This document shows, one piece after another, positions 35,580 through 45,733 of a stretch of 64,000 nt of DNA. A program made the translations under genes and the position numbers. The DNA comes from a bacterium (lineage in GTDB: Bacteria > Zhuqueibacterota > QNDG01 > DSAB01). Numbering within the stretch: the stretch's first letter is position 1; every line of letters starts with the position of its first letter. The notes under the pieces were generated by a model that ran no database searches, was not told the DNA's origin, and was given only the letters and a program-made list of their open reading frames with translations. Location of the stretch: contig JAFGDT010000041.1 in the NCBI GenBank assembly GCA_016931965.1, forward strand, positions 18,851 to 82,850, written 5' to 3'.

Positions 35580-36509
35580 TTAAGTTGTTATCATCTCCAC
35601 TTTGGTTTCGATCTTCTGATTTAAGACGCTTTTCAATGCGACCAACGATACTTCCAATTGCTTGTCATCCGGTTCTTTGGTTGTAATGCGCTGCAGCCAG
35701 AGACCCGGAGCCGTTAAAATCTGGGCAATCCATTTACCAAAACGTTTCCCTGACAATCGGATAATTTCATAGGAAATGCCGCCGATGATAGGAATAAAGA
35801 GAAACCGAATGAAACGGTCTCCCATATCCTGCGGCTTCCCCAAAATGATAAAAACGACCAGTGCAACAAGCATCACCACCAGAAGAAAACTGGTACCACA
35901 CCGGGGATGATGGGTTTTAAATGGCTGAACACCTTTCAATGTCAGCGGTTTGCCTTCCTCGTAGGCAAAAATCGATTTATGTTCTGCACCATGATATTCA
36001 AAGATGCGGCGAATTTCCTTCCAGAGACTGATTAATCCCAGATAGACGATAAAAAAGATTAACCGGATCAAACCATCGAGGAGATTAAACATCACGCCGC
36101 CTTTTACACCGGTCAGTTCAGTGAGCAAAAGTGGAAGAAAAAAGAAAATACCCATTCCGAGTGCCAAAGCCAGTATAACAGTAAGTCCAGTCCATAGTTT
36201 GGATAATTTCTCCGAACGTTTTTTATTTTTCTTCGGTTTGTCTTTATCCAATTCTTTCATGGCTATTTCACTGGAAAAGTTCAGTGCTTTAATACCTAAA
36301 ACCATGGACTCGATCAGAATGACGCCTCCACGAAAAAAGGGCAGTCCCAATATGCGATACCGCTTGGTCCAGGAAACATAACGATCCCGTTTTAAGACAA
36401 TTTGACCATCCGGTTTGCGCACGGCCACCGAAACATATTCCGGGGAGCGCATCATCACCCCTTCGATAACGGCCTGACCTCCCACCTGTATTTTTTGCGA
36501 AACATCCAT
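35580..36509 (-). CDS. DUF1385-family membrane-associated protein
   Basis: Begins [31 protein letters not shown], the classic DUF1385 opening. I place the start at the internal ATG at 36509. It lies between prfA and rpmE, as in many bacteria. Confidence 0.7.
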
Positions 36510-36590
36510 ATTCTCAACCCTATTAGCCAGGTATAAAAAAACGGAACACGATATAAACATCGCATCCCGTCCCAGACATTTTCCATTCCG

Positions 36591-36842
36591 CTATGATGAT
36601 TTCTTTTCTTCCTTCTTTCTCTGGTCTGATTGATCCTCATTCTTCTTGATCTTATACTTTTTCATATACTTCTCAACCCGACCAGCCGAATCAACCAATT
36701 TTTGTTTTCCTGTAAAAAATGGATGACAGTTCGAGCAAATCTCAACATGCATATCGCCCACAGTACTTCGTGTTTGAAATGTATTCCCGCACGCACAGGA
36801 TACGGTTCCCATTTTTAACTCAGGATGTATCTTTTTTTTCAA
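36591..36842 (-). CDS. rpmE: 50S ribosomal protein L31
   Basis: [10 protein letters not shown]...CACGNTF..RST...[13 protein letters not shown], the L31 Zn-ribbon. The true start is the TTG at 36842, not the upstream TTG at 36857 that the ORF track used. Confidence 0.85.
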
Positions 36843-36850
36843 TCTTGAAA

Positions 36851-36855
36851 CCTCC
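36851..36855 (-). promoter_or_regulatory. Shine-Dalgarno (GGAGG) for rpmE
   Basis: Minus strand reads TTGGAGGTTTCAAGATTGAAAAAAAAG, so GGAGG sits 8 nt upstream of the TTG start. Confidence 0.6.
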
Positions 36856-37252
36856 AATCAATCGAATCTTTTTCAAACTTTAAAGATAATAAAACAAACG
36901 ACTCAAAGCAAGAAAAAATTCAAGTTTACAATTCATTTTTATCTTCTTTACTCCCAGCAGCACAGCTACAAGACGACTGCGGGTGGCAACCATTTTCTCG
37001 ATATCGGCAAAATGGTCAGTTACTTTTTCTTTCTCGTTCCAGTGTTCTACGTTGGAACGAGAAGAGTACTCCTCTCCACTCAAGTTGATGGCATGCTTGA
37101 AGCAGTGCAATGATTGCCCTGGATTCCCTTGTCCAGGGCAAATAACTATGGGGCTTCTGACCCATAAGACAATACAGCATCAAGTTTTTGAATTTGGGGA
37201 GGATACCTTGTTGATCGTTCATGGGGGCTTTTTGCCGCTGAACGAATTATTT

Positions 37253-37276
37253 GGAGGGCTGAGCCCTCCCTTTTTT
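37253..37276 (+). terminator. Plus-strand intrinsic terminator with no upstream plus-strand gene, so possibly the end of an ncRNA
   Basis: GGAGGGC-tga-GCCCTCC forms a 6-7-bp GC stem, followed by C and then TTTTTT. Confidence 0.45.
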
Positions 37277-37483
37277 ACGCCTAGGGGTATAGGAGCCTGT
37301 CCAAGAACCCCAAAAAAGCGTTATAATATCATAGATTTTTGAATATATAAAGATTTCATATTAATTGTTACCAAAAATATTCCAATTTTTTCTAGTTCTT
37401 AGACAAGCTCCATAGCCCATTGGCGATCAGAACTTGAGTCTGGTGCAACGCTTATTCGTTTAGGCTTGTTTTATAATATTTTA

Positions 37484-38278
37484 TCATTCTGTGTATTTGA
37501 ATATATAACCTTTATGCGAATTTCGTTTTCCGTGCAAACAACTATTGATATGACTGAAATCTAAATTCAAATACCTAGCACATTGTCTTTGTGTAAGCCA
37601 CTCACCTATATATTTTTCATTTTTAAAAACTAGAAAAGATTTAGCTCCGCGTTGAATTGAATGAATCTTTCTATTTTGGGGGTCAGATAAATACTTACGC
37701 ATTTCTTCTGCTGTTTTCTCTCTTTCAGATTCTTTATTATATCGCATTAACATAAATTTTGAATGTTCTTTTGCTTGTTCAGGATTATCTTGGTGAGCTT
37801 TTTTATTTGCTAAAGATTGCATTCGCCTATTTTCTGGATTTTGGAATAACTTTTTCCTTATTTCGGAATTTCTTTTACACCATTCTTCGTCATACTTAAG
37901 ACCATAAGTTCCTTCCCCACCTAAAGTCAGATTGTAACCATTTGTAAAACTATCATAAAATCGGATATATTTTTTTTCTAGTTCACAGAGTTCTTTCCAT
38001 TCTGTAGCTCTGTCAATTATTTCCCAACTGATATTTTTAGAATCATATTTTCTTATTGCATCGTGAAATGGTGTCCTTGAACCCTTTTTTACACTTCGTA
38101 AATGAATTCGGATTCTTTCTTTTAGCGTTGTTATTGTAATACCAATATAGATTTTTCCACTGGGTGAAGTGGCTTTATATACTATTCCATTAATTGATTT
38201 TTTCTTTTCCATAAATTTACTTACAAGCCTAACGATTATTTCTGCGGCGCGCCAAACCGACGGGTGACCATTATTCAT
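37484..38278 (-). CDS. GIY-YIG homing endonuclease of I-TevI/Seg-like architecture: GIY-YIG domain, NUMOD3-like repeats and a NUMOD1-like HTH
   Basis: GIY-YIG core NGIVYKATSPSGKIYIGITITTLKERIRIH...FHDAIRKY...LEKKYIRFYDS..NGYNLTLGGEG. C-terminal tail CARYLNLDFSHINSCLHGKRNSHKGYIFKY matches the ...NG+RK.A.GY.W.Y DNA-binding motif of homing endonucleases. The start may be the internal ATG at 38212 (MEKKK). Confidence 0.75.
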   Translation of the reverse strand: MNNGHPSVWRAAEIIVRLVSKFMEKKKSINGIVYKATSPSGKIYIGITITTLKERIRIHLRSVKKGSRTPFHDAIRKYDSKNISWEIIDRATEWKELCELEKKYIRFYDSFTNGYNLTLGGEGTYGLKYDEEWCKRNSEIRKKLFQNPENRRMQSLANKKAHQDNPEQAKEHSKFMLMRYNKESEREKTAEEMRKYLSDPQNRKIHSIQRGAKSFLVFKNEKYIGEWLTQRQCARYLNLDFSHINSCLHGKRNSHKGYIFKYTE

Positions 38279-38287
38279 TTTCGTGTG

Positions 38288-38307
38288 GCACTGCTTTTAA
38301 GCAGTGC
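38288..38307. repeat. Perfect 20-bp palindrome GCACTGCTT-TT-AAGCAGTGC, 10 bp upstream of the GIY-YIG start codon
   Basis: Read directly from the sequence. A degenerate copy GCATGCTTGAAGCAGTGC lies at 37091..37108, and a related GCTTTTAAAAGC palindrome at 39759..39770. Confidence 0.6.
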
Positions 38308-38405
38308 TTTAATTATTTGTTCATTCAACACGATATTTTACAAATATCACACTGACCAGGGCACCCTGCGAATTGATGCGGTAGTTATGTAAAGTTATTT
38401 GACTA

Positions 38406-39500
38406 TCAATCAAGCAACTCCTTGAATATTTTATAATCATGATCCGAAAGACTGAATTTGGCATTAAGCTTATTCAGCATTTGGCCCGAGTTGAACCAGG
38501 ATATGAATGTATCGACATTGCCGGCAAACCCTCTTGCACATTTGTCAGATATCGTCTGGTAATCCTGAACTTCTGGGAACAATTTTAAAGTCTGATGAGT
38601 TGCAGATGGGAAATCGAAACCTTGCTTCATGTAATACAAAACACTATAAATATGCCGCAGACGAATTTCTAGATGACTTTCAAATGGAATATTGGCAATT
38701 TTTTCTGACGCTGATAAATTTTCAAATGATTGATGATCAAGTCTTTGTGTTTGATGATGGATTATTCTTCTTCTGGGTGTTCTTTCCGGTTTTTCGACCG
38801 CGCCAATTTGTTGTTTTATTTCTTCTCTCTCTGAAATCTCAATGTGAACTTGCTGCAGTGCCTCAGAGAAAGTCTCGTCATCGGTATCTGGAAATTCATT
38901 TCTCAGGTAACCCACTACTTTCTGTTTTACTTCGAATGAAGTTAATTGTTGAATTAGTGCGATGACTTCCCGTTTTTTGTTAAATTTATCGAGCTTGTTT
39001 TTTAAATATTCATTATACCTATTTTCTTCTATACTACTCTTGTTGAAAATACCTATAAAATTTATGCCTTGCTCTGATCCTTTTTCAAAGTCAATTTTTT
39101 CTAACAATATTGGGTCGGTGTGAGGGTTCAATGGTCCATCATAAAAAATTCTAAGATCTGGTCCAATTAAAAACCCGAAATCGGATTTCATTTGCCTCAT
39201 ATAGGATCTCAGTTGTCCTATTACATAATCACGTTTTATATCCTCTGCAGGCCTCTTGACCTCCACGACAATTAGACATTTCCTATCATTACCATAAATA
39301 ATTAAATCCGGACGAAGCGTGCCCTCACGCCCAAGTTGCACTTTCGGTTGTCTTTCTATCTCATTCTTATATTCCCGCCAACCGAGGACCTCAATGGCTC
39401 TAACCACTTGATTTTCAAAATCCCTTTCAGACAAATTTTGCTTGATATTTTCCGATAACAGAAAACAAATCTCATCCCATTTTTCAGAATTACAATTCAT
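38406..39500 (-). CDS. PD-(D/E)xK nuclease-fold protein with an HsdR-N-like N-terminal domain and an unrecognised C-terminal domain of about 240 aa
   Basis: GTLRPDLIIYGNDRKCLIVVEVKRP matches the D...(E/D)xK motif of the N-terminal domain of type I restriction R subunits (PF13588-like). The rest has no match I recognise. The gene is AT-rich like the adjacent GIY-YIG gene. Confidence 0.6.
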   Translation of the reverse strand: MNCNSEKWDEICFLLSENIKQNLSERDFENQVVRAIEVLGWREYKNEIERQPKVQLGREGTLRPDLIIYGNDRKCLIVVEVKRPAEDIKRDYVIGQLRSYMRQMKSDFGFLIGPDLRIFYDGPLNPHTDPILLEKIDFEKGSEQGINFIGIFNKSSIEENRYNEYLKNKLDKFNKKREVIALIQQLTSFEVKQKVVGYLRNEFPDTDDETFSEALQQVHIEISEREEIKQQIGAVEKPERTPRRRIIHHQTQRLDHQSFENLSASEKIANIPFESHLEIRLRHIYSVLYYMKQGFDFPSATHQTLKLFPEVQDYQTISDKCARGFAGNVDTFISWFNSGQMLNKLNAKFSLSDHDYKIFKELLD

Positions 39501-45676: not shown

Positions 45677-45700
45677 GACATATCCAACATACCAATGAAA

Positions 45701-45733
45701 AAGGTCTTGCAATAACCGGCAAGACCTTTTTTT
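45701..45733. terminator. Bidirectional intrinsic terminator between two convergent genes
   Basis: AAGGTCTTGC-aataaccg-GCAAGACCTT forms a 10-bp stem. It is flanked by an upstream A-run and a downstream TTTTTTT. Confidence 0.6.

Follow-up and report, generated by a model that had tools for sequence, protein, structure and literature searches.

The 64-kb stretch of contig JAFGDT010000041.1 analysed here (64,000 nucleotides, nt; hereafter the window) contains, between rpmE, which encodes ribosomal protein L31, and a GIY-YIG/NUMOD homing-endonuclease gene, a non-coding gap occupied by a chain of hairpins and, on the plus strand, by an intrinsic transcription terminator. Both flanking genes are on the minus strand. 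A preliminary description, made from the letters of the window, had singled out this gap as unusually long for a compact genome and as the possible site of an unannotated plus-strand transcript. Its non-coding nature is borne out, no open reading frame (ORF) being conserved in relatives on either strand; its extent had to be revised. The most likely start of rpmE is TTG 36842, and the database protein P0001 is 100% identical to the product of 83 amino acids (aa) read from this codon, the translation of which was checked. With this start the gap covers 36843-37483. The remark on genome compactness found no support, the organism being a poorly sampled KSB1/Caldithrix-like bacterium: judging by DUF1385 matches in genome and metagenome collections, the named lineages closest to it are candidate division KSB1 and Caldithrix.

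An intrinsic terminator was defined as a GC-rich stem of at least 5-7 bp with a short loop and a U-tract immediately after it on the transcribed strand. At 37253-37276 the plus strand reads GGAGGGC-TGA-GCCCTCC followed by CTTTTTT, that is a 7-bp stem with 6 GC pairs, a 3-nt loop and the U-tract, so that the canonical terminator announced in the preliminary description is indeed present. Because its tail on the minus strand is AAATAATT and not a U-tract, termination is predicted in one direction only. A strict terminator scan of the window returned three terminator-like sites on the plus strand: a bidirectional one at 45700 between convergent genes, one inside an ORF, and 37253-37276, which is the sole strict plus-strand terminator without an upstream plus-strand gene and lies 3.7 kb from any plus-strand ORF end. 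Genuine gene-end terminators were found in the window at 45700, 15774 and 36540 (just after rpmE), and since the organism uses such terminators at gene ends, an orphan one is meaningful. The site at 45700-45729, an 11-bp hairpin with flanking A- and T-runs situated 22-24 nt past two convergent ORFs (ends 45676 and 45749), has the classical form of a bidirectional terminator and was the positive control for terminator use in this organism.

Between rpmE and the terminator lie most of the other hairpins, grouped here into lettered blocks (Table 1). The two 8-bp stems first noted are present and in fact longer, with 11 bp at 37031-37063 and 10 bp at 37114-37141, and further palindromes were found at 36989-37016, 37059-37076 and 37146-37167. 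A stem described at 37284-37311 exists as well, not as a standalone hairpin but as one arm of an AT-rich hairpin of 150 nt at 37278-37425. Compared with shuffled sequences, the 626 nt initially delimited fold with z-scores of -7.05 on the plus strand and -5.53 on the minus strand. When the whole window was scanned in sliding segments of 150 nt, with correction for GC content, 37001-37300 was the top plus-strand outlier (z -3.9) and supplied four of the eight top plus-strand segments; on the minus strand it ranked eleventh.

Close relatives were found via L31 homologues and contig look-ups: L162, L163 and L166 (a short contig), whose L31 proteins are 94%, 88% and 83% identical to that of the window, with L164, L165 and L168 as outgroups. 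Searches for synteny in genome and metagenome collections gave DUF1385 matches of at most 63%, or of 81%, on contigs that do not reach the gap. Near-identical DNA is present in samples including SRR13394437. At four-fold degenerate sites, identity to the window is 61-67% for DUF1385 and carA and 57-70% for rpmE; at this distance, unconstrained DNA should be barely alignable. The sequence between the blocks does not align, whereas the blocks themselves are 81-98% identical over 32-88 nt. Because this identity is far above that of the four-fold sites, the blocks are either selected or recently exchanged. Terminator A keeps its sequence, orientation and position in L162 and L163, the relatives whose contigs reach that far, and the distance from block A to the promoter block is about 310-330 nt in both of them and in the window. 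Block B is 95-97% identical between L162 and L163.

Read toward rpmE, the order is F2, endonuclease, AT-rich hairpin, A, C, F, B, D and promoter in the window; F2, D', A, B, E, C, B and promoter in L163; D'-like, C, esterase, A, E, B, D and promoter in L162; and F, B and promoter in L166, whose contig ends at F. All shared blocks are in the same orientation, and these four genomes carry a mosaic of short palindromic units in variable number. The two B copies of L163 are 100% identical, and block D adjoins block B in L162 and lies about 480 nt upstream of the rpmE promoter in L163. The outgroups next in line share the rpmE promoter, lack the blocks and have gaps that fold with z-scores of -1.0 and -1.5; no significant structure was detected in the L164 gap. 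Further out, the gene directly upstream of rpmE is rpmB in L168 and rho in the Caldithrix locus L003.

Table 1. Features of the rpmE-endonuclease gap and its surroundings, with identities to the close relatives (aligned interval in brackets where it differs)
Feature	Position	Strand	Description	Identity to relatives
rpmE (L31, 83 aa)	36591..36842	-	Pfam L31, E 5e-30; start TTG 36842; Shine-Dalgarno (SD) GGAGG 36851-36855	
rpmE promoter block	36844..36930	-	-35 TTGCTT 36906-36911; -10 TATCTT 36883-36888; 5' untranslated region (UTR) about 34 nt	94% to L163; 90-94% to L162/L166 (36930-36844)
Block D	36987..37019	+	palindrome ACCATTTT-N12-AAAATGGT; 8-bp arms invariant, 12-nt centre varies	
Blocks B-D	37066-36987			89% to L162
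Block B	37030..37069	+	11-bp perfect stem 37031-37063; about 16 pairs on plus strand via G.U	97.6% to L163 (37071-37030)
F-linker-B	37107-37030			86% to L166; colinear 78-nt match
Linker and block F	37070..37108	+	weak hairpin GCATGCTTGAAGCAGTGC, related to block F2	
Block C	37109..37187	+	two hairpins: C2 37114-37141 (10 bp), C1 37146-37167	81% to L163, same locus (37166-37109)
Pre-terminator hairpin	37215..37246	+	predicted fold	3' part alone common to L163
Block A, orphan intrinsic terminator with conserved flanks	37239..37281	+	stem 37253-37269, T-tract 37270-37276	95% to L163; 91% to L162; orientation kept (37281-37239)
AT-rich imperfect hairpin, about 150 nt	37278..37425		40-nt arms, 73% complementary	found only in this genome
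GIY-YIG/NUMOD homing-endonuclease unit	37457..38234	-	ORF 37484-38212, 242 aa; Pfam and PADLOC HEase matches	
Block F2 and flank	38279..38370	+	terminator-like hairpin 38287-38308 with T-rich tail; directly abuts endonuclease unit	93% (55 nt) to L163 (38333-38279); further 43 nt at 81%; L163 533-646

The F2 region, on the far side of the endonuclease, is conserved with L163 despite different neighbouring genes, and possibly ends another plus-strand non-coding unit, which in L163 would include a D-like palindrome. Block E, absent from the window, was seen at L162 2366-2435 and L163 972-1041 and holds a possible 22-codon peptide start in rpmE orientation (MSF.PRCFVSA.WQRLSMTCFR). Five of the seven L162-L163 substitutions fall on third codon positions of this micro-ORF, which is not significant after allowing for six frames, and the candidate was rejected. 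It was also observed that several relatives' contigs are broken inside or just short of the gap, namely L081 (within rpmE), L164, L165 and L166 (within block F); population heterogeneity or repeats at the locus would explain such breaks.

The rpmE promoter (TTGCTT-17-TATCTT, 36911-36883) is conserved in a six-genome alignment and, because it lies between the hairpins and rpmE, the hairpins are not an rpmE leader; a leader would have its structure between the start site and the SD, and none is placed there. On the plus strand, GATAAT at 36885-36890 overlaps the rpmE -10 element. It is exact in the four block-bearing genomes and reads GATAAC or GATAAG in two block-less outgroups. From this overlap we infer a geometry typical of bidirectional promoters; divergent transcription arising from promoter symmetry is common and follows a bidirectional -10 logic (PMC10268837). 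Several observations favour the plus strand as the transcribed one. Fold energies for the window are -126.3 kcal/mol on this strand vs -115.0 on the other. In three genomes the fold z-scores on this strand and on the other were -5.73 vs -5.60, -6.79 vs -4.57 and -7.23 vs -5.66, and 15 of the 20 block copies fold better on the plus strand of the window, including all five copies of block B, the G.U pairs of which would be A.C on the other strand. A double change from U-A to G.U in hairpin C2 of L162 keeps the pairing on the plus strand only. At the other end of rpmE, a 12-bp hairpin followed by TTTTT was observed on the minus strand (36540-36571), 20 nt past the rpmE stop and ahead of the real DUF1385 start (36509); rpmE may be a separate or attenuated transcription unit inside the rpmE-DUF1385-prfA cluster.

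The Rfam scan suggested in the preliminary description was performed with Rfam 15, including group I and II introns, 6S, tmRNA, riboswitches and OLE/ROOL/GOLLD/HEARO, and gave no gathering-level match in the whole window. At E<=10 over 36300-38500, only chance miRNA or snoRNA matches appeared, the weak ones to plant miRNA precursors falling on the AT-rich hairpin; the same scan of relatives L162-L166 gave nothing, and ARAGORN found no tRNA or tmRNA. The AT-rich hairpin, which sits between the endonuclease unit and terminator A, has no homology in L162 or L163, and a global alignment of the AT-rich segment 37282-37483 with the equivalent L163 spacer was not significant (z 1.9). Pfam searches with all small ORFs of the gap gave no support for protein coding. 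A small protein gene was rejected: the 119-aa ORF of the plus strand extends across the terminator, gave no homologue in a search of 5.8 billion proteins and is disrupted in relatives, the 76-aa ORF of the minus strand is frameshifted in L166, and none of the three-frame translations of the homologous regions is conserved, stops or frameshifts being present in relatives in every frame. A remnant of rho or rpmB was also rejected, tblastx and blastn against 80 loci having found nothing, and no split or interrupted host gene was seen on either strand. Blastn-short searches with every block and pattern searches matched this locus only, against a dispersed repeat; no further copies of blocks A-F turned up elsewhere in the window (63 kb) or among about 160 additional loci, the clade sequence open to this search amounting to 64 kb plus about 16 kb. 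Since phage, plasmid and viral collections gave no match to the blocks either, they do not form a dispersed repeat family, and phage- or plasmid-derived mobile DNA was discarded as an origin.

The endonuclease gene next to the gap has its start at ATG 38212, which is M23 of the longest ORF and gives 242 aa as in its homologues, at least 67 of which were counted. The nearest copy, L167, is 87% identical at the nucleotide level over 38235-37483 only and has unrelated genes on either side; an inverted repeat of 11-12 bp encloses each copy (GTTAGGCTTGT / ACAAGCCTAAC; 38223-38234 and 37457-37469 in the window). Because the homology with L167 is confined to this interval in a different context, the endonuclease is a free-standing, ORF-only mobile insertion. 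The interrupted host gene and travelling intron sequence by which a group I intron would be recognized are absent, and the hairpin blocks are present in relatives without the endonuclease. In L167, similar units of about 60 nt (…TTCAAGGTnGTnnTGCTATGAAAnTATTTnTGTAATTAT… CGTTAGGC) were observed on both sides of the endonuclease (1290-1400 and 2250-2330), which may have entered a series of repeated upstream regions there. The genes beyond block A are the endonuclease and a PDDEXK/HSDR_N-like gene in the window, an esterase and an nSTAND1 NTPase in L162, and one gene without known function in L163. Because they differ in every block-bearing genome, the gap borders a hotspot for the insertion of accessory genes, which land just past terminator A. 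The gene adjoining the endonuclease (38406-39500, minus strand) encodes a 364-aa protein with an N-terminal HSDR_N_2/PDDEXK nuclease-like domain and weak PADLOC PDC-S02 matches, in a stretch of 31-37% GC vs about 45%; it is possibly a defence gene in a variable segment.

Taken together, these data describe a feature that is real, apparently maintained by selection and in no curated family, and whose function stays inferred. It is non-coding, has its own terminator and is conserved above the neutral background, as expected of a small RNA (sRNA) gene. The reading that we tentatively prefer, while holding it somewhat short of probable, is an unannotated, clade-specific, non-coding plus-strand transcript of about 330-380 nt that ends at the orphan terminator. 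As far as sequence can tell, this transcript, already proposed in the preliminary description, is the simplest reading because the orphan terminator is conserved without a plus-strand gene and no ORF is conserved. The transcription unit would be the GC-normal part of the gap, about 36894-37276 on the plus strand, read away from rpmE. RNA polymerase would start at or beside the rpmE promoter, at the GATAAT overlapping the rpmE -10, then transcribe the observed hairpins in the order D, B, F, C, and the RNA would be released at 37253-37276, where the GC-hairpin and U-tract and their conservation are established and the terminating activity is presumed. The RNA so formed would be stable. Because stems and loops are conserved in sequence while the number and order of the blocks drift, each block may be an independent hairpin for the recognition of a protein or of the ribosome-binding sites of mRNAs, and the blocks probably do not form one globular fold. 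Several of the plus-strand loops are pyrimidine-rich (UUCCCUUG, CUUCUG, UCU). A crude RNA-RNA duplex scan against the 102 translation-start regions of the window gave no meaningful target, rpmE scoring below average. The terminator could also keep transcription that departs from the strong ribosomal-protein promoter out of the adjacent accessory genes.

Several observations weigh against such a transcript. Block content and order vary among genomes about 87% identical at the nucleotide level (A-C-F-B-D, A-E-B-D and A-B-E-C-B), which is unusual for a single functional RNA, and the high identity of the blocks could come from recent exchange instead of selection. Block C is 76% identical to an L162 copy located in a different gap, between convergent genes. 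The six-genome alignment shows no convincing conserved -35 element for a plus-strand promoter. Compensatory changes in the stems, proposed in the preliminary description as a check, were looked for among the three to five sequences available per block: 136 pair-cells are unchanged, 2 are compensatory, 15 show one-sided compatible changes and 11 are broken, the compensatory changes being too few to establish an RNA structure, and the counts are about equal on both strands. The block B stem is weakened in L162 and L166. Two of the palindromes (36989-37016 and 37059-37076) have no loop, and block D, with its invariant 8-bp half-sites around a variable spacer of fixed 12-nt length, looks like a protein-binding DNA site.

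In the main rival reading the short palindromic cassettes would act as DNA, for instance as substrates of recombination or as sites for protein binding, and would appear, vanish, be duplicated and pass between genomes at the border of an accessory-gene hotspot, any transcript being incidental; we regard this as unlikely, though well worth weighing. Differing block order and copy number between close relatives, the perfect duplication of B in L163, the displaced copy of C in L162, the loopless palindromes and the half-sites of block D all speak for it, as do the different genes just past block A in each genome, the lack of such a region in distant relatives with rpmB or rho directly upstream of rpmE, and the contigs ending inside or just short of the gap. 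Identity far above neutral is also a signature of mobile or exchanged DNA, BIME/BOX mosaics are comparable systems, and the PeSL elements of phages provide a precedent (PMC2839356, PMC4122927). This hypothesis has to face, however, the absence of any further block copy in the other 63 kb, the roughly 160 loci and the phage, plasmid and viral collections, the shared orientation and colinear order of the blocks relative to rpmE, the conserved orientation of the terminator, the folding in favour of one strand, and the lack of a recombinase or transposase among the neighbouring ORFs scanned. The two ideas may also be combined: hairpin cassettes would mark and mediate accessory-gene exchange beside the ribosomal-protein operon, being shuffled, duplicated and exchanged, and would be transcribed as one modular RNA, a proposal that we find doubtful. 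If true, these distinct stem-loops of conserved sequence would form a kind of chromosomal cassette system not described before, equivalent in bacteria to phage PeSLs and at the same time an sRNA gene, in which some stem-loops are one-directional terminators and the composition of the RNA evolves by gain and loss of blocks.

Just as improbable to us is a role as insulator only, where the rpmE promoter would also fire divergently, as promoter symmetry commonly causes (PMC10268837), and yield a functionless RNA, selection would act on terminators A and F2 sparing the accessory genes from antisense transcription, and the other hairpins would be remnants. The conservation of both plus-strand terminator-like hairpins though their flanking genes differ, and the variable presence of the internal blocks, agree with this; generic terminators, however, need no sequence conservation, blocks B, C, D and F, loops included, match the terminator in conservation and far exceed neutral sites, and at 30-40% neutral divergence remnants would be expected to have decayed. 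A long rpmE 5'UTR, or upstream operator sites controlling L31 synthesis, is very unlikely. The region is immediately upstream of rpmE, L31 of E. coli regulates itself through a 5'UTR stem-loop (PMC7297116) and block D, about 90 bp ahead of the -35 in the window, resembles a dimer-binding site, but the promoter between the hairpins and rpmE leaves about 34 nt of UTR, the terminator has the wrong orientation, the structure is stronger on the opposite strand, and distant relatives have the same promoter without hairpins. Effectively excluded are a small protein gene, whose 119-aa candidate ORF exists but crosses the terminator, lacks homologues and is broken in relatives, and the degraded intron or ribozyme core once envisaged for this gap. 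GIY-YIG/NUMOD endonucleases are often intron-encoded, and some databases label the homologues 'group I intron endonuclease', but no group I or other Rfam family matched at E<=10, no host gene is interrupted, the nearest endonuclease copy shares the ORF only, its homology ending there, and relatives without the endonuclease have the blocks. An RNA antisense to the endonuclease 3' end, another early suggestion, is not supported, as the terminator lies 208 nt short of that gene; antisense overlap with the rpmE leader, suggested alongside it, would depend on where the transcript starts.

If the transcript is real, it would be among the first sRNA candidates in KSB1/Calditrichota-like lineages, for which Rfam holds no regulatory RNAs, and it would illustrate an RNA gene evolving by swaps of whole hairpin blocks between genomes about 13% diverged, with a bearing on the origin of young sRNAs at island borders. 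If the blocks act as DNA, the gap would be a recombination-prone border element explaining the differing defence-like and accessory genes beside the rpmE-prfA-carAB cluster. Under either reading the practical gain is modest, consisting of a well-delimited, testable non-coding element and two corrected gene starts.

The feature is a fresh instance of a familiar kind and not categorically new. Like REP/BIME elements of enterobacteria and pseudomonads (PMC2817692) and pneumococcal BOX (PMC3049150), it consists of extragenic palindromic units of 20-40 nt in variable-number mosaics with strong predicted RNA structure, and those families are often transcribed with their neighbours. REPs, however, have more than 100 dispersed copies per genome (PMC2817692), whereas no block recurs in 64 kb, the blocks being restricted to one locus and one nearby L162 gap; moreover, seven different unit sequences are present here instead of one repeated unit, and, unlike REP/BIME, no RAYT-type transposase was seen nearby. 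The bL31 autoregulatory stem-loop of the E. coli rpmE 5'UTR (PMC7297116) is likewise a structured non-coding sequence adjoining rpmE, but the hairpins described here are upstream of the conserved promoter, the 5'UTR measuring about 34 nt, and their better fold is on the opposite strand.

PeSLs are promoter-terminator stem-loop cassettes mediating gene shuffling in T4-type phages (PMC2839356, PMC4122927). As in those phages, conserved stem-loop or terminator motifs border segments with differing genes in close genomes, and a free-standing homing endonuclease is among the inserted genes: the endonuclease insertion lies between the terminator-like A and F2, and that of the esterase in L162 between C and A. 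In the hyperplastic regions of phages, a single composite PeSL motif recurs on the flanks of every cassette, whereas several unrelated hairpins on a bacterial chromosome are found here; the motifs flanking the insertions are not repeats of the same sequence, none was seen to include a promoter, and no motif-to-motif recombination junction is demonstrated. In Salmonella, 19 sRNAs were confirmed starting from orphan terminators in gaps associated with islands (PMC2330248), and the same logic was used in PMC2573895 and PMC2790875. The candidate differs from these Isr RNAs in being known from sequence alone, without a clear promoter, and in consisting of hairpin blocks that vary in order and number from one relative to the next. 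It shares with them an intergenic Rho-independent terminator without a gene to terminate, a position at the edge of variable, horizontally acquired genes, a restriction to close relatives and a size of a few hundred nt. The conserved orphan-terminator element is most economically regarded, by this analogy, as a putative member of a class that has been validated repeatedly at island borders (PMC2330248).

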